Shown: piece by piece, positions 7,341 to 22,481 of the stretch
Position numbering within the stretch: position 1 is the first letter of the stretch
How the letters are laid out: the number at the start of each line of letters is the position of its first letter
NCBI GenBank assembly: GCA_964483955.1
Contig: CAZADM010000001.1
Coordinates: 20,719-84,718, forward strand
Reading direction: 5' to 3'
Length of the DNA: 64,000 bases
From: an uncultured Candidatus Saccharibacteria bacterium
GTDB taxonomy: Bacteria > Patescibacteriota > Saccharimonadia > Saccharimonadales > Saccharimonadaceae
Notes under the pieces: model-generated
Seen by the model: only the letters and a program-made list of their open reading frames with translations
The model's database searches: none
Told to the model about the DNA's origin: nothing
Position numbers and translations under genes: made by a program

Positions 7341-9833
<2,493 letters not shown>

Positions 9834-9837
<4 letters not shown>

Positions 9838-10946
9838 TTTGTAATGAAATAGTCAAATGAAAATGTCTGGTTTGCTGGTGCTGCATTGGCGGTGCATATA
9901 CTGAAGTTTGCTGCACTTCGGTTGACGTAGTACTGCACCTGTCCGGCTGCTTGGCCAACCGGGCTTACAATAACGCGTGGCTGTCGGTCAAATTGCCTAT
10001 TGAAGTTAATCTGTGTAAAGCAGCCAGGTGCCGGGCTATTGCCAGTCTGGATATTGATAGTTCCAGCAGTATCTGAGCCACTGAGTGAAAGTGTGCCGCC
10101 AGACCCTAGGGTTGTGTAGTTAAGTGTGCCACGCCCTGGTGTCGGGCCTGTAAAGCCAATATGGTTCGGAACCTCTAGTGTTGCATTGCCGCTTAAGATG
10201 AGCCGTGTGACAGTAAGCTGGTTTGCTGTGATTGGTCCGCTGAGGGTTGTTGCACCTGATACCGATAGGTCTCGCATTGTGGTTGCACCCTGTACTGCAA
10301 GTGTGTTCTGGACCTGGAGTGTGTTTGACTGGGTGTCGCTTAGGTTTGCTGTTCCGGATATGGTAATGCTTGGAGCTTGAATATTTCCACCAGTTTGAAG
10401 AGTACCTGCAATATTAGTACTACCGCGCATGAGCGTCTGTCCTGCGATAATAGCATTTCCTTGTATGGTGAGTGTTTGGGACGTATTGCCAACGGAAACG
10501 TCGGTATTTGCAAGCTGCTCTAATGTTTTGTCTGCGAGTTCTTGTGTCGCAATGTCTACGACGGGATTTGCCCTTTGGTTGTTTAGATAGTTTACGACAG
10601 TAATAGCACCCGCAACGACAAGGAGGAGGAAGAAGATCAGAAAGTACACATTCACCTTCTTTAGGAAGCGCTTTAAGGCTGACGGCTTTTTCTCTACGGA
10701 TGTTGCGGCTGGCATTTCGCTGGATGCCATTTGTTCTGTGCGTTCTTGCTCAAGATCCTCTGGGGTTCGACTGAGTGCATCTGCTGGTGCTGGCTCGCCG
10801 GCTTCCTCCTGCCCTGCTGGTGCGGTGTCGTTCTCTTGCTTGGTGCTTTCTTCAGTTGACGGGGCAGCATCAATAGGAGTGTCGGGCACCCGGCTTGTGT
10901 CCTGATCTTCTGCTGGAGTATCTTGCGGTTTATTTTCTTCGTTCAT
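9834..10946 (-). CDS. Type II membrane protein: acidic/Pro-rich cytoplasmic tail, one TM, extracellular beta-helix-like repeats and a possible H-type-lectin-like C-terminus
   Basis: TM is VYFLIFFLLLVVAGAITVV. Repeats run TLTIQGNAIIAGQTLMRGSTNIAGTLQTGGNIQAPSITISGTANL...LAVQGATTMRDLSVSGATTLSGPITANQLTV. The C-terminus is INFNRQFDRQPRVIVSPVG...FSFDYFI. The stop codon overlaps the atpC stop. Confidence 0.7.
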
Positions 10947-11051: not shown

Positions 11052-11804
11052 ATGAAGACGCTTATGCGAAATAAATATACATATAAAGGTGTGAGACTTG
11101 TACAACTGTGCTTTGTCGCGGTATTTATTGCTAGTGCACTTGCATTGCCTGTCCAAGCTGTAACGTCGTCATCGGAGAATTATCAACTTACTGAGTCGCA
11201 ATTTAATGGCGGGACTGTCGCCGAGGGTTGTTCCGAGAGCTACTGTAGCCAGGCTTCTATAGGTGATATGAGTGGCTCGGTAGGCAAGAGCTCTGCGGCT
11301 TTTGACCAAAAACCAGAAGACGAACCAATCCTTGAAGTGATTGTCGATCCCGGCGAGTCTAATCTTGGTGCACTGACAACTGAACATACGGCAACAAAAA
11401 CGATGATTGTCCGGATACGGAATAATCTCAGTGAGGGATATGTACTTCAGCTTATCGGTGCGGCACCGAAGTTTGGTGAGCATTCACTCAGAACCTACGC
11501 CGTTCCTACGGCTTCAACGCCCGGTATAGAGCAGTTTGGGATAAACGTTGTTGCAAACACAACGCCACTTATTGGGGCAAGTCCCGCACAGATCCCTGGG
11601 GGGCAGGGCGTATTTGGTGATGCCTATGACGGATACAATACACCCAATCTATTCAAGTACACAAGCGGTGATGTTATTGCCAGAAGTACTCGCTCTGAAG
11701 GGCGTACAGACTATACGGTGAGCATGATTGTCAATATTGCAAACACAACACCTGCGGGTAAGTATGTGGCCGACTTTGCAGCCGTTGTTATCCCCACGTA
11801 CTAG
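11052..11804 (+). CDS. Secreted protein A of the surface locus (small WxL-like subunit)
   Basis: Signal peptide (..ALALPVQA/VTSS), GIEQFGINVVANTTP, and the C-terminal end NTTPAGKYVADFAAVVIPTY. Confidence 0.75.
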   Translation: MKTLMRNKYTYKGVRLVQLCFVAVFIASALALPVQAVTSSSENYQLTESQFNGGTVAEGCSESYCSQASIGDMSGSVGKSSAAFDQKPEDEPILEVIVDPGESNLGALTTEHTATKTMIVRIRNNLSEGYVLQLIGAAPKFGEHSLRTYAVPTASTPGIEQFGINVVANTTPLIGASPAQIPGGQGVFGDAYDGYNTPNLFKYTSGDVIARSTRSEGRTDYTVSMIVNIANTTPAGKYVADFAAVVIPTY

Positions 11805-11934
11805 CATTTCTGTGGATAACTAGAGACTGTGGAAAACTTATTGACGGATTTCATTGCCAAGCCATACTGATAATGCTAAAATATCGACGTAACCCTATTG
11901 TAGGGAGCAGTAAAATAAACATAGAAGGAGACAT

Positions 11935-13509
11935 ATGAGTACTCATAAACTCAAGTCAGTCGCACAGCGCGGTTCTATGCTAGTGGCGGCAGCAGCTCTT
12001 GTAGCAGCAACAATCGCCCCAGCAGCAGTATTCGCTGATGCACTCAATCCTCTAACCGAGCGTTCATTGCTACTTAGTAGCTCTGCGCCAGGTTTCCAGG
12101 ATACGGACGGTTCAGGTAATTCAACCGCTAGTCCAAACCCATCCGCAACGGGTGGTCTATCAACAGACCCTGGATACATTCCAGGTACCTATGCACCTGC
12201 GGGATCTGGTGCAAACGGTATGAAGACTGGTCAGTCATTTAGCTTCCGCGTCAGCACAAACAGTTCATCGTCAAATGCAGTGAAGGCATTTACGCTTCAG
12301 TACTGTACGGAAGCTGCCGGTCTCTGTAAGGCTCCAGGTAACAATACTGGAGATGCACGTGCATTCGATCGTGAAGCTAACGGTACCCAAGGTGATGCCC
12401 GTACTCCGGATCGTCTATCAAATGCAGCGTCTAAGGCTGACAGCAAGAGCGACCTTGATGTAAACTACACATCACCAGTTGCTGGTACAGACTTCCAGAT
12501 CTTTGTTGACGGTGTAGATCAGTCTACTGGCTGGACAATGACAACAAGTAACGTAGAAGATTTCGCTCACTCCGGTGCACTTACTGGTAAGAAAAACTTC
12601 ATTACACTTGCAAACGGAACTGGTATCAACCCTGCTGCAAATGCAAAGATTGAGATTAAGTTCTTTGCAACTGAAACTAACTACATCACTAATCCAGGCT
12701 CAGGTGCATTCTTTGTAAAGATGAATACATACAACAGTGAGCTTCCTGCAGACCACCTCCCAGCAACCGATGAGAATATCATCGACGGTGGTGTTACTGT
12801 TGCAAACGTGATGACTGATTCAATCCACATCACAACAAAGGTACTTGAAACAATGGCCTTCTCTGTGGGTACGCAGAACCCTGATACAGTTGTTAAGGGT
12901 AGTGCTAACGATCACGGTACATGTGAAAGCATCCTTACTCCTAACGGTAACCGACTCCAGCTTGGTAACCCTGACGCTGAATACTCACTTGAGACAGGCA
13001 AGGCTTATGATGTAAAGTCATGGTGGCGCCTCTCATCTAACTCATCTGGTGGTGCAACAGTCTACTACTCAGGTGAAACACTTGCAAACACAGTTGGTGA
13101 CGTTATTGCCCCAATTGGTGGTACACGTGCAACAAGTCAGCCAGGAACAGAGCAATTTGGTCTTGCGTTCATGGATCACGATGCTACTTCAACCTCATTT
13201 GAAGAGCAGCGTGCAGCAAACGCTACGCGTTATCGCAATCCAAATCTCTACGTCCTTAACGAAGGTGAACAATACAACTACGGTAACGGTACACTTGACA
13301 ATGGAAGTGGCGGTGCGGGTACAGCACAATTCGCATTCCTTCGCTCAAGCCTTACAAACCCTGTAGCTATTGCAGACAACCTTGGTGCAGAAAGTTCAGT
13401 TCTCACCTGCGAGACTGCTCAGATGCGCTACGTTGCGAACATCGGTGCAGATACACCAGCTGGTGTCTACACAACTAAGATTAACTACCTTGCTGCTCCA
13501 CAATACTAG
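11935..13509 (+). CDS. Secreted protein B of the surface locus (probable major structural subunit)
   Basis: Strong SD (GAAGGAGA) and signal peptide (..PAAVFA/DALNP). The mature N-terminus carries ERSLLLSSSAPG. It also has GTEQFGLAF, the C-terminus DTPAGVYTTKINYLAAPQY, biased codon choice (ggt/ctt/aac) and a strong terminator immediately downstream. Confidence 0.85.
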   Translation: MSTHKLKSVAQRGSMLVAAAALVAATIAPAAVFADALNPLTERSLLLSSSAPGFQDTDGSGNSTASPNPSATGGLSTDPGYIPGTYAPAGSGANGMKTGQSFSFRVSTNSSSSNAVKAFTLQYCTEAAGLCKAPGNNTGDARAFDREANGTQGDARTPDRLSNAASKADSKSDLDVNYTSPVAGTDFQIFVDGVDQSTGWTMTTSNVEDFAHSGALTGKKNFITLANGTGINPAANAKIEIKFFATETNYITNPGSGAFFVKMNTYNSELPADHLPATDENIIDGGVTVANVMTDSIHITTKVLETMAFSVGTQNPDTVVKGSANDHGTCESILTPNGNRLQLGNPDAEYSLETGKAYDVKSWWRLSSNSSGGATVYYSGETLANTVGDVIAPIGGTRATSQPGTEQFGLAFMDHDATSTSFEEQRAANATRYRNPNLYVLNEGEQYNYGNGTLDNGSGGAGTAQFAFLRSSLTNPVAIADNLGAESSVLTCETAQMRYVANIGADTPAGVYTTKINYLAAPQY

Positions 13510-13540
13510 ACCGACATATTATTTGTAGGTAATCTTGAAT

Positions 13541-13572
13541 ACAGCCGCGCATGTCGCGGCTGTATTATTTTC
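13541..13572 (+). terminator. Rho-independent terminator after gene B
   Basis: A perfect 9-bp stem, ACAGCCGCG / CGCGGCTGT, with a 5-nt loop, followed by ATTATTTT. Confidence 0.8.
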
Positions 13573-13627
13573 TCGCCTCAGTCTTGTTAGTGTCAGGATC
13601 GGTATTATCTAGTACAATAGGTATATA

Positions 13628-14707
13628 ATGAAGCACAGGGTATATAGAATTCATCCAGAGGTAAGCCACTGGCGGCATATTGGCCCAGAGGTGTTTATTG
13701 CTCTTGTGCTCTCTGTGCTAGTACTTATACCTTCAGTCGGAGCTGCATCTTTCCGTTTCCAGGAGCGAAGCCTCTATATGAACAGTACAGCTCCCTCTGA
13801 AGAGACGTACTACAAAGTCTCTTTTCGCTACATGAGCCCGCTCCCTGTTGGTTCGGTCGATATGTTGTTCTGTATTGACCCAATTCCACACCATGAATGC
13901 ATCGCACCTGCCGGTCTTGATGTTTCACGCGCGGAATTGTCGTCGCAAACAGGTGAGACTGGCTTTACTATATCCTCAAAAACTACCAACAGGATTGTCC
14001 TTTCGCGTACACCATCTTCAATTCCTGTCCAGAATGAATCTTCTTATGTGTTTGATAATATAGTTAATCCAACTGATACAACGCAATCATTTTCTATACG
14101 CCTGAAAAGTCACAGTACTAATAACGCCTCCGGCCCGCAAATAGATTTCGGATCAATAAAGGGCCAGGTTACAAACGGCATCAATATTGAAACACAGGTG
14201 CCACCGATGCTCATTTTCTGTCTTGCGGAAGAGGTATCAGACAACTGCACCGAAACTAACGAGACCTACTTTAGGGATCTGGGTGAACTTACGCCTTCTG
14301 ATACACTGTCTACACAGTCACAGATGGCTGTTGGGACAAACGCAACTGGTGGTTTTGCTGTAACCGTCTATGGAACGCCAATGAGTGCGGGTATTCATAC
14401 CATCCCATCCCCTTCAGAGCCAACAGAAAGTAAGCCCGGAAGTAATCAGTTTGGGATCAATCTTGTGGAAAATAGCATACCTCAAGTGGGGAGGAATCCA
14501 GAAGGTGTTTGGGCAAATGCAATTGTCGCCGACGACTATTCTGAAACCAATAAATTCAAGTACACGCCTGGTGATGTTGTTGCATATTCACCCAATGTCA
14601 GCTTGATGAAGAAATTTACCGTTAGTTATGTCGTCAATGCAAGTCCTAACCTTCGAGCTGGTGTATATAGCACAACACTCACGTATATAGCGAGCGGACG
14701 CTTTTAG
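13628..14707 (+). CDS. Secreted protein C of the surface locus (paralog of B and F)
   Basis: Signal peptide, mature N-terminal FQERSLYMNSTAP, a ..FC.....ECIAPAGL block, GSNQFGINLVENSIP, and the C-terminus NLRAGVYSTTLTYIASGRF. Confidence 0.8.
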   Translation: MKHRVYRIHPEVSHWRHIGPEVFIALVLSVLVLIPSVGAASFRFQERSLYMNSTAPSEETYYKVSFRYMSPLPVGSVDMLFCIDPIPHHECIAPAGLDVSRAELSSQTGETGFTISSKTTNRIVLSRTPSSIPVQNESSYVFDNIVNPTDTTQSFSIRLKSHSTNNASGPQIDFGSIKGQVTNGINIETQVPPMLIFCLAEEVSDNCTETNETYFRDLGELTPSDTLSTQSQMAVGTNATGGFAVTVYGTPMSAGIHTIPSPSEPTESKPGSNQFGINLVENSIPQVGRNPEGVWANAIVADDYSETNKFKYTPGDVVAYSPNVSLMKKFTVSYVVNASPNLRAGVYSTTLTYIASGRF

Positions 14708-14762
14708 TGGTACAATACAGCTTATACTTATAGTCAAAGTAACGTGAGGGAATAACGAATAC

Positions 14763-15818
14763 ATGAAACGCTTTGCAAGCATTATTACTGCATTTGCTGT
14801 CGCTGCAACAGTTGCCTTTATGCCGTCTGGTGATGCTGCTGCGCAGTCGTCGGCCGCATTAAGCATTACACCAAAGAAAAACTACACCATAGAGGCGGGA
14901 AAGAGTGTCAGGGACACACTCACAATCAGGAATCTTGATCGTGAACGTACGCTTGATCTTACGCTTAATGTTGTAGATTTTACATTTAAAGACGACGGGG
15001 GTACTCCGGAGTTGATGCTGGCAGAAGATGCACCACAAACGACATGGTCGCTAAAGCCTTTCATTAAAGTGCCTAAGACGGTGAAGATTAAGCCAATGGG
15101 AAGCGAAACACTCGATATGAGTGTCGCTATTCCGGCCAAGCAAGGTGCGGGCAGCTACTACAGTGCAATTGTTTACTCTTCTGGAACTCCAGAGGGCGGC
15201 AACGTTGGGCTCAGTGCATCTGGCGTGACGCTTGTATTTGCAAATGTCCCTGGAACGGTAAAAGAAAACCTTACGCTAGAAAAGTTTGGTTTATATAGGC
15301 CTGAAGCAGATGGTAAGCAGGCGAAGTACCTCAGGCTTGCAATTAATAATCCACAACGCGTTGCCTATACGCTTGCAAACGAGGGGAACGTTGCCGAGAG
15401 CCCGGTTGGTTCTATTACCCTTCGCCATATGTTTGGTCAAGAAGTTAACGTGACCGACATCAACCCGCAGGGTTCACTTGCACTTATTGGACAGACGCGA
15501 ACTTTTGTCGCCTGTCTTGCAACAAAAGATGCCAACCTCGAATTAAATGGTGAAGAACGATCAAACGCGAAGGTCTGTGACGACCAAGTGCTATGGCCAG
15601 GAATTTATACTGCAACAATAGATGCCTACTACGGGCAAAACGGTAATAATACTAAAGAAATTACTGGAACGACGTGGTTCATTTATGCACCGTGGTGGTC
15701 TCTCGTAATTCTTCTTCTTGTTATTGTCGGGGTTATCCTCCTATCGTTCAAAATTACCCGGGCGAGTAAGTCGAAGCGTCGCACAAATCGTTCAAGAAAA
15801 TCTGCACTTCGTCGGTAA
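14763..15818 (+). CDS. Ig-like surface protein with a C-terminal TM anchor and basic tail (DUF916/DUF3324-like; CscA/WxL-interacting-protein-like architecture)
   Basis: Signal peptide, then LSITPKKNYTIEAGKSVRDTLTIRNLDRERTLDLTLNVVDF..., AIPAKQGAGSYYSAIVY, a second beta domain, and WWSLVILLLVIVGVILLSF + KSKRRTNRSRK. Confidence 0.7.
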   Translation: MKRFASIITAFAVAATVAFMPSGDAAAQSSAALSITPKKNYTIEAGKSVRDTLTIRNLDRERTLDLTLNVVDFTFKDDGGTPELMLAEDAPQTTWSLKPFIKVPKTVKIKPMGSETLDMSVAIPAKQGAGSYYSAIVYSSGTPEGGNVGLSASGVTLVFANVPGTVKENLTLEKFGLYRPEADGKQAKYLRLAINNPQRVAYTLANEGNVAESPVGSITLRHMFGQEVNVTDINPQGSLALIGQTRTFVACLATKDANLELNGEERSNAKVCDDQVLWPGIYTATIDAYYGQNGNNTKEITGTTWFIYAPWWSLVILLLVIVGVILLSFKITRASKSKRRTNRSRKSALRR

Positions 15819-15842
15819 AGTAACTATAAGGTGGAGTGTGAA

Positions 15843-16763
15843 ATGCACAAAGCAAACAGCCCGATAGTCTTAATAAAGAAGGTGACCCTCGTTTTCGTAG
15901 GGTCGCTTCTGCTTACCGTCCTGCTGCTCTCAAATCATGCAAGTGCCTTGACACCACTTCCGACACCAGATCCTAAGCCAGGATCGTTTGGTGTTGAAGC
16001 GACTAAGATGAAAGATCCGCCCACTGTCAGTGCTTCAATCTCAGTTCCGGGCAATGGCGCTCAATTTTCCACCTCACCAACAACAGTAAGTGGCACCTGC
16101 CCCGAGGATCTTCTTGTCCAAATATTTAACAACAATGTAATGGTTGGTGCCGTTGTATGTGAGAACGGAAGCTTTTCGATACAAGTGAGCCTTTTTGCGG
16201 GGACTAACGAGCTTACGGCAATCGTGTACGATGAACTTGATCAGGCTGGCCCTGTCTCTGCCGTTGCTACCGTCACCTATACGGACACCCGCTTTAGTGC
16301 CTTCGGGCAGCTTATTACGCTCACAAGCTCATATGGAAGGCGTTCTGCTCCAACAGGGACGCAACTTGCATGGCCGCTTCAACTTTCAGGGGGCACTGGT
16401 CCGTACGCTTTCAGTATTGATTGGGGTGATGGGTCAAGTGCGGAGCTTAAGAGTCAATCTCTTGCAGGGCTAGTGAATCTTTCGCACACATATAAAAAAG
16501 CGGGCATCTATCCAGTAAACGTTAGGGTGACCGACGCTAACGAGGTGAGTGCGTTCCTCCAGGTTATAGCCGTCTCCTCTGGTATTGTCGAGCAGACCCC
16601 AGAGGAAAAGAAGGCAGCCGAGGAAAAGATTGCCGTCTTATGGATTCCTTCTGCTGTTGCCGTAGGGCTTCTTGTTCCAACATTTTGGCTTGGACGACAA
16701 AGTCAGGTTGTGTCAATTCGCAAAAAGATGCTCAAGGAGCGCGACACGTACGCACAAAAATAA
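15843..16763 (+). CDS. PKD-domain / bacterial-Ig-like surface protein with a C-terminal TM anchor
   Basis: FSIDWGDGSSAELKS..LSHTYKKAGIYPVNVRVTDANEVS fits the PKD consensus WDFGDGS..H.Y...G.Y.V.L.V.D. C-terminal TM is LWIPSAVAVGLLVPTFWL. AAGGTGGAG precedes the ATG at 15843; the ORF track starts at the GTG at 15831. Confidence 0.75.
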   Translation: MHKANSPIVLIKKVTLVFVGSLLLTVLLLSNHASALTPLPTPDPKPGSFGVEATKMKDPPTVSASISVPGNGAQFSTSPTTVSGTCPEDLLVQIFNNNVMVGAVVCENGSFSIQVSLFAGTNELTAIVYDELDQAGPVSAVATVTYTDTRFSAFGQLITLTSSYGRRSAPTGTQLAWPLQLSGGTGPYAFSIDWGDGSSAELKSQSLAGLVNLSHTYKKAGIYPVNVRVTDANEVSAFLQVIAVSSGIVEQTPEEKKAAEEKIAVLWIPSAVAVGLLVPTFWLGRQSQVVSIRKKMLKERDTYAQK

Positions 16764-16826
16764 CATCCCCTATAGTCGAGTTGCCGTACACAACCGTAAG
16801 GGGTATGTGATACACTGGAGTGAGGT

Positions 16827-17981
16827 ATGTGGAGACGTTTTTTGAGGGACCTATTGTTCACCATCCACACGAGGCGGTACTTGAGGCCTATCGGCCTTGT
16901 CGCTATGATGGGTGGTATCTTGTTGACGTTTTCTTCTTTTGCTGCCGCAGAGCAGCTACCAAGCCGATCGGTTCAGTTATCAAGTGCATCGGCTGCCGCA
17001 ACTGACGTTACGTATATCTTTGATTTCACTGTGAATTCAGCTGCAGGCGCATTTGTTGTTGATTTTTGCAGCAATTCTCCACTTGTGGGAAGTGCTTGCG
17101 TTGCTCCGGCTGGTATGACTGTCGCTGGTGTGACAGTTTCTCCTTCTGGGTATGTGAAAAATGCAATGGATAGTAATACGTTTGCTGTTGCTGCGACACT
17201 TGCGGCCGAGTCGACACATACGGTAACCGTAAGTGGTGTCACAAATCCGTCCGCCTCTGGTGTTGTGTATGCTCGTATCATTACTTATGACACACTTACC
17301 AACGCCCAGCTCTACACCCCAGAGGACTTAGGGGCAGGAACTGTCGACGGAGGCACTATAGCGTTTTCGATTACAGACACGGTGGGTGTGAGTGGCTCTG
17401 TTCTGGAGAGTGTTACGTTTTGCGTATCGGGTACGGTAATTGGTGAAAACTGTACTAATGTCGCACAGCCAGTCTTGAAACTAGGTGAACAGACCGGTGA
17501 TGTCCTTGCTTTAACCCCTTCAGCAGTGAGTGAGGGTGTTATCTATGCACAGGTCTCAACCAATGCTGCTAATGGTGTGACAGTTAACCTGAAAAGCAGT
17601 GCAATGCAATGTGGCGGGCTTTTGCGTGCTGGTGGCGGGGTAGCGTGCGATATCGGCCCAGCACTTGATGATGGCATATCTGCGGGGCAGGCCCTGTTTG
17701 GTGTAAAGGTAGAGCCAATTACAGACACCGCACCACAGGCATCGGGTGTCTTTAAGGCGGCAACCGGCTCTATATATGGGCCGCTTCGTTTTTCTCTTAA
17801 CTTTGTTTCTGGGGATGCGAGTGGCATAACGAGTACGTTTGGCGACCCCTTCCTTGATACTGACGATGCACCTGCAAATAACAAAAATGTCGCTTTGAGA
17901 TTTGGTGCAAGTGTGAGTAACGATACACCAGCGGGTCTCTACTCTACCGATTTGAGCCTTATAGCTGCTGGGAAGTTTTAG
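16827..17981 (+). CDS. Secreted protein F of the surface locus (paralog of B and C)
   Basis: Signal peptide (..FSSFAAA/EQ), mature N-terminal SRSVQLSSASAA, VVDFCSNSPLVGSACVAPAGM, GQALFGVKVEP, and the C-terminus NDTPAGLYSTDLSLIAAGKF. Confidence 0.8.
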   Translation: MWRRFLRDLLFTIHTRRYLRPIGLVAMMGGILLTFSSFAAAEQLPSRSVQLSSASAAATDVTYIFDFTVNSAAGAFVVDFCSNSPLVGSACVAPAGMTVAGVTVSPSGYVKNAMDSNTFAVAATLAAESTHTVTVSGVTNPSASGVVYARIITYDTLTNAQLYTPEDLGAGTVDGGTIAFSITDTVGVSGSVLESVTFCVSGTVIGENCTNVAQPVLKLGEQTGDVLALTPSAVSEGVIYAQVSTNAANGVTVNLKSSAMQCGGLLRAGGGVACDIGPALDDGISAGQALFGVKVEPITDTAPQASGVFKAATGSIYGPLRFSLNFVSGDASGITSTFGDPFLDTDDAPANNKNVALRFGASVSNDTPAGLYSTDLSLIAAGKF

Positions 17982-17985
17982 TGAC

Positions 17986-19026
17986 ATGGCAGGTCATCTG
18001 TTTCGTTACGCGATAGCGATTGGCCTCTCTGTAGTTCTTTCTGCTAGCTGTGTCTTTATCTTTGCTCAGGGCGTATCTGCACAGGAGAGTAAGACGGCAA
18101 ATGTCCTAAAGGTCTCTCCGGTACGTACTGACATTGAAGTGTCGCCTGGTGGAACGAAAGTTATACAGGCGACCGTTGCTAATCTTGCGGACGCTCCTAT
18201 AACCGTGCGTCCAGTTGCAAATGACTTTATTGCAGGTGACGAGCGCGGCACTCCCGCTTTGATTCTAGAAGAAGATGCATTCGCTCCGACCCATAGCTTG
18301 AAGCGTTTCATGTCCCCGCTCTCTACGGTGACAATACCTGCACGCAGTGCAAAGACCATCCAGGTTGTGATTACCGTCCCGCCAACGGCACAGGCCGGAG
18401 GTTATTTTGGGTCTGTACGGTTTATGCCGAGCGACCCGGACGAGGGAGGGCAGGTGAATATGAGTCCAAGTGTGGCTTCGTTGATACTACTGAAGGTACC
18501 TGGTGCTATGGTTGAAGAATTACGCGTTGCGTCTTTCTCTGTGCAGCAAGGTGATTCGAGTGGGTTTTATTTTAGGTCACCAGACAATATCTCGGCATTA
18601 GTTCGTTTTGAGAATAAGGGGAATGTACAGATTGCACCACTGGGTAAGATTCAAGTGCAAAAGCGTGATGCTGTTGTGTTTGAATCTGATTTCAATACAG
18701 TAAATCCGTACGATATGATTCTTCCTAATAGTACGCGCCGCTGGGACGTACCTATAAAAGAGCTTGATGCTTTTGGATATTACACACTTACTGCAACGCT
18801 GACATATGGCTCTAAAAACAAAACACTAGAGTTGTCTCATTCATTCTGGATTGTGCCACTTTGGGCACTTCTTGTTGCGATACTACTGGTGGTGATTGTT
18901 GTAGGCGGTGTTGTTGCCCTGATCATCTTCGGTATAAGAAAGTTGCGACGCCCCGCTTCGCATAGCCCACGACAAGGAATACAGCTACGGAAGCACCGAA
19001 AGCGTCGTCGCAGATTTGGTCGCTAG
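17986..19026 (+). CDS. Second Ig-like surface protein with a C-terminal TM anchor and poly-basic tail (paralog of 14763-15818)
   Basis: LKVSPVRTDIEVSPGGTKVIQATVANLADAPITVRPVANDF..., VPPTAQAGGYFGSVRF, MILPNSTRRWDVPI...GYYTLTATLTYG, and the TM WALLVAILLVVIVVGGVVALIIF + RKHRKRRRR. Confidence 0.7.
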   Translation: MAGHLFRYAIAIGLSVVLSASCVFIFAQGVSAQESKTANVLKVSPVRTDIEVSPGGTKVIQATVANLADAPITVRPVANDFIAGDERGTPALILEEDAFAPTHSLKRFMSPLSTVTIPARSAKTIQVVITVPPTAQAGGYFGSVRFMPSDPDEGGQVNMSPSVASLILLKVPGAMVEELRVASFSVQQGDSSGFYFRSPDNISALVRFENKGNVQIAPLGKIQVQKRDAVVFESDFNTVNPYDMILPNSTRRWDVPIKELDAFGYYTLTATLTYGSKNKTLELSHSFWIVPLWALLVAILLVVIVVGGVVALIIFGIRKLRRPASHSPRQGIQLRKHRKRRRRFGR

Positions 19027-20728: not shown

Positions 20729-21415
20729 TTAGAGTAATGCGTCAATTTCTTTCTTTAAAGCGGTGAGGTCACTATTAGAAATGCCCTGTGCTGCCTCGTC
20801 GGAAATTTTCTTACCATTGAGAATAAACGTCGGTGTCGATGACACTTCGTCTTTCTTTCCAAGTGCTTGATCAAAACTAATCTTTTTCGCTACCTTTTCG
20901 CTTGCAAGGTCTTGCTTGAAGGTATCCGAATTAAGCTGAAGTGCTTCTGCATACTTATTAAATATTTCGGTGCGTGATGTAGGGTCTGCATTTTGCCACT
21001 CAGCCTGTGCCTGGAAAAGATTGAGGTTCATTTCCCAGTACTTTCCCTGGAGCCCAGCTGCTTCTGCTGCAGCTGCGGCAGCTTTTGCATTAGGGTGAAT
21101 GGTAGTGAGTGGGAAATTCCTAAATACAAAAGCAATTTTATCACCATACTCATCCATGAGAAGCTTCATGTTTGGCGATGCCCCTGCACATCCTGGGCAT
21201 TGAAAATCACCATACTCAATAAGAACAACCTTGCTATCCTTATTTCCCATTACGTGGTCACCAATAGTACCGCTGGCATCTGATCCGACGAGAATTGTCG
21301 ATGTGTTAACTGCCGATACGTCAAGCGGCGGGTTTGCTATGCGTGTCCATGCTATGAGGCTTCCCAGCACTAGAACGACGGCAGTCACAAATATAATCCA
21401 ACCTGTTTTTGTCAT
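20729..21415 (-). CDS. Membrane-anchored DsbA/BdbD-family thiol:disulfide oxidoreductase
   Basis: N-terminal TM (WIIFVTAVVLVLGSLIAW) and the thioredoxin motif YGDFQCPGCA. The start is set at MTKTGW (21415); the longer ORF-track N-terminus overlaps the divergent neighbour. Confidence 0.8.
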   Translation of the reverse strand: MTKTGWIIFVTAVVLVLGSLIAWTRIANPPLDVSAVNTSTILVGSDASGTIGDHVMGNKDSKVVLIEYGDFQCPGCAGASPNMKLLMDEYGDKIAFVFRNFPLTTIHPNAKAAAAAAEAAGLQGKYWEMNLNLFQAQAEWQNADPTSRTEIFNKYAEALQLNSDTFKQDLASEKVAKKISFDQALGKKDEVSSTPTFILNGKKISDEAAQGISNSDLTALKKEIDALL

Positions 21416-21470
21416 GTATTCCTCCTGTTTTCTCATACTATTGTACCAGACGCTGGGGTACAATAGAGAC

Positions 21471-22481
21471 ATGCTTATGTCTATTGTACTTATTATTGTG
21501 TTTGTGCTTGCGGTTATTTTAGGCTCCGTGCCGCTTCCCTCGGATTCTCTTCGACGCTCAGAGCTTATTCGTCGTGCGAAGCATTCTGCCGCCTTTAAAA
21601 AACGGCTTGAACGGGATAGCCTGCATGTCCATGCAAGGACAATGCTTGGTGCCACAAGTATCTTTGTGGCGATACTCTTTACTTCACTAACCGTTGTAGC
21701 GTACGGCTGGCTTGGTGGTGTGTTTGTCTCGTGTGTCGCTGCAGTGTTATATGTATTTCTAGTGAGGCAATCAGGCGTTCGCACACTTAGTGCTCGTTTA
21801 TTCCAGTATGTAGACCCGTATGTGTTTGCATTTGCACGCAAAGTGCCGCCTGTTTGGAAATTCCTGCGTATTACTCCAAGGCACCCAGTAGCCGATACCC
21901 TCGTGCTTTCGTCAAGAGAGGAGCTTGAAGAGGCGATTGCCCTGTCGGCCGATGCCCTCAGTCATCGAGAGCGGCAACTTCTTGGCCATGTACTTGCTTT
22001 TAACGATAAGAAAGTTTGTGACGTTATGACGCCACGGTCTGTGATACGAACGGTTAATAGGGCAGAATTTCTAGGTCCACTTGTTCTTGATGAGCTCCAT
22101 AACACTGGACACGGTCGCCTGCCAGTTATTGACGGTGATATCGATCATGTTGTCGGTATATTGCATTTGCGTGATTTGCTATCTCTTGAGAACAAGAAGT
22201 CCGCAATTGCAGAGGCACTTATGGAGAAGAAAGTTTTCTATGTAAACGAAGATACTGCACTGTACAGTGCACTTGCAAGCTTTATTCGTCACCATCACCA
22301 CCTCTTCATTGTTGTGAATAATCAGCGGGAAACGGTTGGTCTCTTGACACTTGAGGATGTTATCGAGGCACTTATAGGTGAGGCGATAGTCGATGAGGAC
22401 GATCAGAATACGGACATGCGTAAGAAGGCGGCTCAAAAAGCAGGCGAGAATAATAACAGCCCTCATGGCATCTACCTCTAG
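21471..22481 (+). CDS. DUF21/CNNM-type membrane protein with a CBS-domain pair (CorC/hemolysin family)
   Basis: TM-rich N-terminus followed by DVMTPRS..., HGRLPVIDGDIDHVVGILHLRDLL, LFIVVNNQRETVGLLTLEDVIEALIGE. The start is set at MLMSIVL (21471). Confidence 0.75.
   Translation: MLMSIVLIIVFVLAVILGSVPLPSDSLRRSELIRRAKHSAAFKKRLERDSLHVHARTMLGATSIFVAILFTSLTVVAYGWLGGVFVSCVAAVLYVFLVRQSGVRTLSARLFQYVDPYVFAFARKVPPVWKFLRITPRHPVADTLVLSSREELEEAIALSADALSHRERQLLGHVLAFNDKKVCDVMTPRSVIRTVNRAEFLGPLVLDELHNTGHGRLPVIDGDIDHVVGILHLRDLLSLENKKSAIAEALMEKKVFYVNEDTALYSALASFIRHHHHLFIVVNNQRETVGLLTLEDVIEALIGEAIVDEDDQNTDMRKKAAQKAGENNNSPHGIYL

Follow-up and report, generated by a model that had tools for sequence, protein, structure and literature searches.

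The closest described counterpart of the locus analyzed here is the Pam pilus of Candidatus Mycosynbacter amalyticus JR1, a surface filament of the candidate phyla radiation (CPR). Cryo-electron microscopy (cryo-EM) of filaments from this species identified two pilins, PamA (55.3 kDa, two Cys pairs) and PamB (38.7 kDa, three Cys pairs), in which a linker strand between the pilin domains is donated to the neighboring subunit (Troman et al., bioRxiv 10.64898/2026.03.03.709456). According to the same preprint, the operon also encodes a third pilin (PamE), a single-domain tip subunit (PamT), two PapD/FimC-like chaperones with a C-terminal transmembrane (TM) helix (PamC and PamD), and the RbmA-like, TM-anchored PamR, which is proposed to act as the terminator. 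The conserved neighbors comprise ATP synthase genes, a CorB-like gene, and a tail-fiber-like gene that is presented as central to the pam neighborhood, and no trans-envelope machinery is reported. Here, we examine a stretch of 64,000 nucleotides from an uncultured Candidatus Saccharibacteria bacterium (assembly GCA_964483955.1, contig CAZADM010000001.1, positions 20,719 to 84,718 of the forward strand; hereafter, the window), which carries a seven-gene operon that is very probably a pam operon. The locus resembles that of strain JR1 in its seven components and their order, in its neighbors (ATP synthase, tail-fiber-like, and CorB-like genes), and in the sizes and Cys counts of its products. 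It differs in belonging to another Saccharimonadia species and in being known from its genes alone.

Pam shares several features with the chaperone-usher pili (Pap, Fim, Csu, CFA/I, and Caf1), namely, a truncated immunoglobulin (Ig)-like pilin, donor-strand exchange, and a chaperone with two Ig lobes. The C terminus of the Pam pilins, an alternating hydrophobic strand followed by an aromatic residue, may resemble the chaperone-usher C-terminal motif. In contrast to these pili, Pam has neither an usher nor an outer membrane and its chaperones are membrane anchored. Its major pilins are two-domain proteins whose donor strand is an internal linker instead of an N-terminal extension, and the filament is extended, not coiled. 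Sortase-assembled pili of Gram-positive bacteria are likewise surface fibers of Ig-like subunits in bacteria without an outer membrane, but they are held together by isopeptide bonds, whereas Pam relies on noncovalent strand exchange. The WxL/Csc clusters of Lactobacillales, Listeria, and Enterococcus consist of CscA (WxLIP), the small WxL protein CscB, the large WxL protein CscC, and the LPXTG protein CscD. In the WxL literature, WxLIP is read as a binder of peptidoglycan and of the host, with a TM helix that inserts into host membranes.

Identification of a pam operon

Seven consecutive open reading frames (ORFs) on the plus strand, here lettered A to G, occupy positions 11052 to 19026. A first-pass annotation of the sequence had described them as a same-strand locus of signal-peptide proteins, and this description holds for every gene at the coordinates given below. 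As read from the sequence, 7/7 products carry a Sec-type signal peptide with a basic n-region, a hydrophobic h-region, and an AxA-like cleavage site, and the C termini of D, E, and G consist of a hydrophobic helix followed by a poly-basic tail. We are highly confident that the locus is the pam operon, encoding the donor-strand-exchange pilus system of CPR bacteria. This system has already been described, both in the preprint and in the NCBIfam models that derive from it (NF058578, NF058579, and NF058581), and the locus is an ordinary instance of it and no discovery in itself.

Gene A (positions 11052 to 11804; 250 amino acids [aa]) scores 268.1 bits on NF058579, the CPR_pilus_PamT equivalog model (cut-off, 240), and encodes the single-domain tip pilin PamT. 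Gene E (15843 to 16763; 306 aa; alternative GTG start at 15831) reaches 368.6 bits on NF058578, the CPR_pilus_PamR equivalog model (cut-off, 300), which identifies it as PamR, an RbmA-like/PKD protein with a C-terminal TM anchor. It also scores above the Pfam cut-offs for PKD_4 (29.5 bits) and PKD (28.0 bits), in line with its earlier labeling as a TM-anchored PKD-domain protein. On NF058581, the model of the Pam pilin C domain (cut-off, 55 bits), the scores of A (155.2), B (65.8), and C (155.4) all pass, and this model places the pilin domain at the C terminus of A, B, C, and F.

The remaining pilins were named from their size, Cys content, and position. Gene B (11935 to 13509; 524 aa) encodes a 54.5-kDa product with 4 Cys, compared with 55.3 kDa and two Cys pairs for PamA, and also matches PamA in its operon position; we therefore call it the PamA-type large major pilin. 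The product of F (16827 to 17981; 384 aa) measures 39.0 kDa and contains 6 Cys, compared with 38.7 kDa and three Cys pairs for PamB, and its synteny (76 syntenic orthologs) and its invariant Gly, Phe, and Gly columns, common to the other pilins, likewise point to the small major pilin of the PamB type. Gene C (13628 to 14707; 359 aa, 39.1 kDa, 4 Cys) is presumably the PamE-type two-domain pilin, as judged from gene order: the accession order of the preprint, when reversed, reads T-A-E-D-R-B-C, which is the order of A to G in the window. Finally, D (14763 to 15818; 351 aa) and G (17986 to 19026; 346 aa) encode the membrane-anchored two-Ig-domain chaperones PamD and PamC, assigned by Pfam and hhalign and, for PamC, also by Foldseek.

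The window ORFs of at least 80 aa contain neither an LPXTG motif nor a sortase TLxTC signature, as had been stated before, and library scans of the window proteins revealed no resemblance to an usher among the seven genes or their neighbors.

Synteny and distribution

Scanning one genome per GTDB species with a degenerate pattern yielded 147 genomes with a PamC relative, nearly all of them labeled Saccharibacteria, Saccharimonadia, or Patescibacteria. Eighty loci were kept, for which synteny strings were derived by ORF calling and phmmer. The order atpD-atpC-(tail-fiber-like gene on the opposite strand)-T-A-E-D-R-B-C (bef'TAEDRBC) is present at full length in 28 loci, and the others are versions of the same order shortened by contig ends, save two: one locus has a duplicated PamE (bef'TAEEDRBC), and another (L079) is rearranged, its PamC lying in the opposite orientation to the other genes of the operon. 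The seven-gene arrangement that the first-pass annotation had singled out is hence shared by related genomes, with two exceptions across 80 loci. The closest named relative, TM7i, shows 67% identity in PamC. The same annotation had proposed a host-attachment apparatus in a CPR bacterium. This part stands insofar as the locus is a conserved, syntenic surface apparatus that very likely serves host contact; what had been missed is that it represents an already described pilus.

Typical pam operons also lie on three short contigs labeled Chloroflexi, Acidobacteriota, and Dongiaceae (L020, L036, and L055). These labels look like binning errors or contamination of metagenome-assembled genomes.

Conservation and predicted fold of the pilins

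The internal QFG(I/L) and ALFGVKV motifs and the C-terminal sequences previously reported for A, B, C, and F are present as written, apart from a single slip, as B reads QFGLA and not QFGLN. Alignments of 129 to 147 orthologs, which cover the four pilin classes, leave just three columns without variation: G129, F162 (of QFG), and G236 (of PAG), in PamT numbering. The proposed conservation of the C-terminal motif is borne out by its aromatic residue, which is kept in 64/64 PamA, 66/67 PamE, 76/76 PamB, and 56/57 PamT orthologs. Judged from these alignments, the shared pilin motifs are more than chance.

PamT, with 57 syntenic orthologs, is composed of a signal peptide, a Cys-containing N-terminal region of low confidence, and a truncated Ig-like pilin domain (residues ~90 to 250). 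PamA has an N-terminal beta-sandwich, a linker or donor strand, and a C-terminal pilin domain. Its linker (DGGVTVANVM.SI.ItTKVLETM.FSVG) is highly conserved and represents the most conserved part of the protein, and its C terminus (TPAGiYTTKINY.AAPQY) is highly conserved as well. PamR carries a conserved, Pro-flanked N-terminal strand, PGSFGVEATK.

An AlphaFold2 model of PamT was built from an 80-sequence multiple sequence alignment (MSA), obtained from a search of 1.84 billion representatives (449 clusters at E ≤ 1e-3). The predicted local distance difference test (pLDDT) score of its core exceeds 90. When queried against the PDB with Foldseek, the model retrieves almost exclusively chaperone-usher pilins (the FimA rod, the PapG pilin domain, CsuA/B, CsuE, FimG, FimF, PapA, and CfaB), and its neighbors include other donor-strand fibers, namely, TasA and the Sulfolobus thread. 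The model thus indicates that the Pam pilins are chaperone-usher-pilin-like, in agreement with the preprint.

Weak matches to Pfam DUF2808, which we take to be a cyanobacterial family of unknown function, were found in 7/129 Pam pilin orthologs (best E value, 1.8e-4). They may reflect a related domain outside the CPR.

Several points weigh against the assignment of the locus and of its individual products. F scores 33.8 bits on NF058581 (E = 3e-8), under the 55-bit cut-off. The names PamA, PamB, and PamE were given by size, Cys count, and gene order. In the preprint, the roles of PamT, PamE, PamR, PamC, and PamD derive from AlphaFold complexes, and for the present genome every role is transferred by orthology, the filament structures coming from another species. 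The Pam cryo-EM structures are absent from the PDB copy searched, and sequence searches of that copy with G, B, the PamT profile, and the PamC profile returned nothing relevant. The Foldseek E values of the PamT model are modest (best, 2.5e-3), for a list of matches that is coherent. Last, in the comparison of PamC with WxLIP set out below, the PamC hidden Markov model (HMM) fails to reach the Enterococcus protein EfmWxLIP1 by sequence alone at E ≤ 1.

Comparison of the pilins with WxL domains

The first-pass annotation had interpreted A, B, C, and F as WxL proteins in which Trp is replaced by Phe or Tyr. By that account, the whole locus would be a diverged WxL/Csc complex whose WxL proteins sit noncovalently on the wall with a WxLIP-like partner, and there would be no pilus. 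The account draws on a genuine relationship of D and G to WxLIP, presented in the next section, and on a parallel cluster logic, in which a small single-domain protein and large proteins with the domain at the C terminus accompany a two-Ig TM partner and a small anchored protein. A, B, C, and F are indeed encoded next to a WxLIP-type gene, and their shared domain is C terminal, as in WxL clusters.

The pilins themselves give no sign of such a relationship. At E ≤ 10, the Pfam WxL model (PF13731) matches none of the four window proteins, 0/129 orthologs, and 0/80 diverse PamT representatives, whereas the positive controls, bona fide WxL proteins, score 166 to 196 bits. Profile-profile alignment of the Pam C domains to WxL with hhalign gives probabilities of 0.1 to 0.3%, with an Enterococcus-only as well as a diverse WxL profile, and the global mode (-glob) produced junk. 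Trp-x-Leu motifs are absent from the four proteins, and PamT is devoid of any Trp. WxL domains are extremely divergent, and even the solved long-WxL chain 9i25_A scores no more than 21 bits with the WxL profile. A negative sequence test accordingly carries little weight, which lends the diverged-complex account some room, and for this reason a structural test was made with the PamT model. Chain 9i25_A is not among its top 50 Foldseek matches, which are filled by chaperone-usher pilins.

Two candidate points of contact were rejected. The proposed equivalence of QFGIN to the GWxL motif is unsupported, as a forced, low-confidence alignment puts the first WxL motif on the invariant "s.GY.lQ" instead, and neither assignment is significant. 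An actinobacterial WxL-like family (12 members), which adjoins a Streptomyces DUF916 gene and ends in TPVGDYAGTLTLTLL, was considered as a bridge between Pam and WxL. By hhalign, it reaches 28.5% to WxL, at the first motif, and 8.3% to Pam, at the C-terminal strand only, and the same strand pattern aligns to PamC too. The shared "P.G.Y.x.l.l" C-terminal strand, alignable with a strand within PamC as well, represents a generic Ig feature and as such argues against reading the C-terminal motif as a WxL signature.

Taken together, no WxL homology of A, B, C, and F is detectable by sequence or fold search, and their orthologs form filaments by cryo-EM. We consider it unlikely that the locus is a diverged WxL/Csc complex. 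Of the proposed complex, the part concerning D and G stands, and the part concerning A, B, C, and F is unsupported; the latter are best read as pilins of the pam operon.

A plasmid of Streptomyces goshikiensis (NZ_CP115937.1; L002:5861-8819) encodes a DUF916-only, TM-anchored protein directly after a GH43-ricin protein. The C-terminal ~170 aa of this GH43-ricin protein form a weak WxL-like domain (19.5 bits on Pfam WxL, with a GWSL motif) ending in YTPVGDYAGTLTLTLL-COOH. DUF916/WxL-like pairs hence exist in Actinobacteria, in this case joined to a glycoside hydrolase, and such gene pairs are not strictly a Firmicutes feature, which the first annotation had taken WxL clusters to be.

PamC and PamD as members of the WxLIP family

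PamC and PamD are members of the WxLIP family (DUF916-DUF3324-TM; CscA) of Firmicutes and Actinobacteria. The two proteins are paralogs, as had been claimed for this pair of two-domain, TM-anchored proteins (hhalign probability, 100%; E = 8.5e-40; 27% identity over 278 columns). With a signal peptide and a C-terminal TM helix and basic tail, both have the WxLIP layout, and their lengths of 351 aa (D) and 346 aa (G) fall within the roughly 320 to 380 aa expected of the family and compare with 337 to 365 aa published for WxLIP in the WxL literature.

As single proteins, G (24.9 bits; E = 2e-5) and D (15.1 bits) remain below the 27.3-bit gathering score of the Pfam model WxLIP_PGBD (PF06030, formerly DUF916). 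Among their relatives, the same model is matched by 116/116 PamC homologs at E ≤ 0.01 (best, 2.6e-10) and by 62/66 PamD orthologs at E ≤ 0.1 (best, 1.1e-7), and one homolog is named "DUF916 domain-containing protein" at NCBI. A tblastn search of G against 7.3 Gb of plasmids gave 12 weak matches, each within a gene annotated as DUF916 or DUF916-DUF3324, in Enterococcus, Listeria, or Streptomyces, and these led to bona fide WxL clusters. BLASTP of G against an Enterococcus mundtii WxLIP yields an E value of 2e-10.

Profile-profile comparison extends this similarity to both domains. The PamC alignment matches that of five Firmicutes WxLIPs with an hhalign probability of 98.9% (E = 1.9e-17) over 245 columns, which include both domains and the TM helix. 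In this alignment, GGYFGAVRF of PamC corresponds to GvvLGAVqF of WxLIP and ILPDSARRW to mAPNSNFnF, consistent with the DUF916/DUF3324 layout earlier recognized in D and G from their GGYFGSVRF and ILPNS blocks. PamD aligns to the Firmicutes WxLIPs at 75% and to a Streptomyces DUF916 protein at 96%, and the controls, PamR and the tail-fiber-like protein, remain below 1%. The Pfam model PF11797 (DUF3324/WxLIP_HBD) has no match in PamC or PamD; the second domain does align by hhalign and Foldseek.

We modeled G with AlphaFold2 from a 116-sequence MSA and compared the result with 350,542 PDB chains using Foldseek. The model (pLDDT, 87.2) contains two beta domains and a helix at residues 292 to 320. 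Its first three ranks are occupied by the solved Enterococcus faecium WxLIP (9i1y_A, 9i25_C, and 9i1y_B), with E values of 3.8e-12 to 3.5e-11 and target-normalized TM-scores of 0.52 to 0.55 over 271 to 273 columns. The next matches with good TM-scores are the chaperone-usher chaperones CfaA, CupB2, YadV, DraB, CsuC, SafB, and Caf1M. WxLIP itself is thus chaperone-usher-chaperone-like, which reconciles the Pam and WxL literatures. The PDB entries 9i1y and 9i25, released on 2026-01-28, show the E. faecium WxLIP alone and "bound to long WxL," respectively.

A likeness of this kind could arise by convergence on the tandem Ig/Fn3 fold, in which case PamC and PamD would be ordinary membrane-anchored adhesins and not assembly chaperones. 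Indeed, the PamC model has 365 Foldseek matches at E ≤ 1e-3, including a transglutaminase, C5a peptidase, and CEP192, and Pfam fn3_5 and NPCBM_assoc also match many PamC homologs; the missing DUF3324 match and the failure of the PamC HMM to reach EfmWxLIP1 point the same way. Nevertheless, the sequence signal is specific, with 12/12 plasmid tblastn matches falling on DUF916 genes and an hhalign match that covers the second domain, conserved APNS motif included, as well as the TM helix, against controls below 1%. Moreover, the highest listed TM-scores (0.42 to 0.57, target normalized) belong to WxLIP and chaperone-usher chaperones, whereas generic Ig proteins lie at 0.1 to 0.3, and each operon holds two conserved paralogs beside four pilins. 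Convergence is therefore highly improbable, and PamC and PamD are regarded in what follows as WxLIP-family chaperones.

The preprint makes no mention of DUF916, WxLIP, or WxL and calls the system CPR exclusive (Troman et al.). No link between Pam and WxL or WxLIP was found in the searchable Pam or WxL literature, and the literature searched contained neither a connection of WxL to pili, chaperones, or donor strands nor a paper on the 9i25 complex. What is apparently unreported is the family link between PamC/PamD and WxLIP.

Proposed assembly of the pilus

Based on their signal peptides, the seven products would be exported by Sec. PamC and PamD, tethered to the cytoplasmic membrane by their C-terminal helix, are predicted to cap the groove of the pilins, following the AlphaFold complexes of the preprint. 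PamT, which has no donor strand, would begin the fiber at the tip, after which PamB, PamA, and then PamE would be added, the interdomain linker strand of each displacing the chaperone strand in the preceding subunit. At the base, the N-terminal strand of PamR is predicted to insert into the last subunit, with PamE as the proposed acceptor, and its TM helix would anchor the fiber. Initial contact with the host bacterium is presumably made by these fibers.

For PamA and PamB, cryo-EM of filaments from Ca. Mycosynbacter amalyticus has demonstrated donor-strand assembly (Troman et al.). By orthology, the same process would operate in the present genome, where the chaperone-usher-pilin-like fold and the conserved linker strand are compatible with it. 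Other local features that fit the scheme are the Pro-flanked strand of PamR, a hairpin after pamA, and the co-occurrence of a DsbA-like gene with paired pilin Cys, the latter two of which are described at the end.

Relationship between Pam and WxL/Csc clusters

The comparison with WxL/Csc clusters can be extended beyond the chaperones. PamC and PamD share with WxLIP the signal peptide, the DUF916-like domain, the second Ig domain with its APNS motif, and the TM helix with basic tail. Both systems pair a small single-domain protein with large proteins that carry the shared domain at the C terminus, both contain a small anchored protein starting with a short beta-strand, and in both the two-Ig partner is predicted by AlphaFold to insert one of its strands into the substrate domain. 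On the other hand, the Pam pilin domains have neither detectable WxL similarity nor WxL motifs, the Pam anchor is a TM helix in place of LPXTG and sortase, and Pam forms long filaments, which WxL proteins are not reported to do.

A similar short strand (GQITF, ASIKF, ATVTF, SIGFTG, VGITF, or VGISF) opens both the small WxL proteins and the tiny LPXTG proteins of five Firmicutes clusters and leads into a Pro/acidic linker. In Enterococcus, the small LPXTG proteins (L001:6740-7054, L084:4603-4911, L085:7459-7794, and L086:6930-7475) comprise only a signal peptide, such a strand (SIGFTG, VGITF, or VGISF), a linker, and the sorting signal. The tiny LPXTG protein (CscD) is what a PamR-like anchoring donor subunit might be expected to look like. 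The WxL literature describes a buried WxL platform under a mobile N-terminal strand on a long linker, as well as an AlphaFold prediction in which a strand of DUF916 (WxLIP) inserts into WxL. A covered platform and strand insertion by WxLIP are features typical of donor-strand systems. In combination with the PamC/PamD-WxLIP link, this points to donor-strand complementation as a possible mode of action of WxL clusters too.

We tentatively propose, as a possibility that we consider less likely than not, that Pam, the Firmicutes WxL/Csc clusters, and the actinobacterial DUF916-linked genes are branches of one ancient, usher-less system, suited to envelopes without an outer membrane, with membrane-anchored, donor-strand-complementing chaperones of the WxLIP type. 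The homology of PamC and PamD with WxLIP, the parallel cluster logic, and the N-terminal strand motif speak for such a common system; homology of the substrate domains is unsupported so far. If it holds true, WxL proteins would not simply be "peptidoglycan-binding" but would be chaperoned by WxLIP and joined or anchored by donated N-terminal strands, and CscD would take the anchoring role that PamR has in the CPR.

The family link has consequences of its own. The preprint treats the system as exclusive to the CPR and its chaperones as merely PapD-like, but the chaperones come from a family that is found here in Enterococcus, Listeria, and Streptomyces and, according to the WxL literature, across the Lactobacillales. 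The link also offers a testable mechanism for the retention of WxL proteins at the surface of Gram-positive bacteria, an old question, and sets the origin of the CPR pilus within a wider lineage of bacteria that have no outer membrane.

Neighboring genes and putative regulatory elements

The upstream context of the operon is conserved and consists of atpD and atpC (ATP synthase beta and epsilon subunits; 8204 to 9837, plus strand) and a divergent gene on the minus strand (9834 to 10946). The latter encodes the tail-fiber-like protein, a repeat-rich product anchored in the membrane at its N terminus, and is located upstream on the opposite strand in 48 loci. The protein has an acidic low-complexity N terminus, one TM helix, and a Gly/Thr/Asn-rich repeat region, and gives a weak Bactofilin-like Pfam match (21.5 bits).

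A scan for promoter and terminator consensus sequences recovered a total number of sites not above the shuffled expectation, and only one element stands out. This is a terminator-like hairpin on the plus strand (13538 to 13566) with a 12-bp stem and a T-rich tail, located 29 nt 3' of the pamA stop codon. The same scan placed promoter-like sites on the plus strand at 11854 to 11882 and 13590 to 13618. The hairpin and the promoter-like site at 13590 to 13618 suggest that pamA is a separately tuned transcription unit; as a lead, the hairpin and promoter-like sites would fit a high, separate expression of the major pilin.

Downstream of the operon, a gene on the minus strand (20729 to 21415) encodes a membrane-anchored, DsbA-like thiol-disulfide oxidoreductase with a CPGC motif, which could be the source of the pilin disulfides. 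It is paired with a divergent CorB/CNNM-like gene (21231 to 22481, plus strand), and this pair lies downstream of the pam operon in 22 to 23 of the 80 loci. The overlap between the long ORFs of the DsbA-like and CorB-like genes is due solely to upstream alternative start codons.

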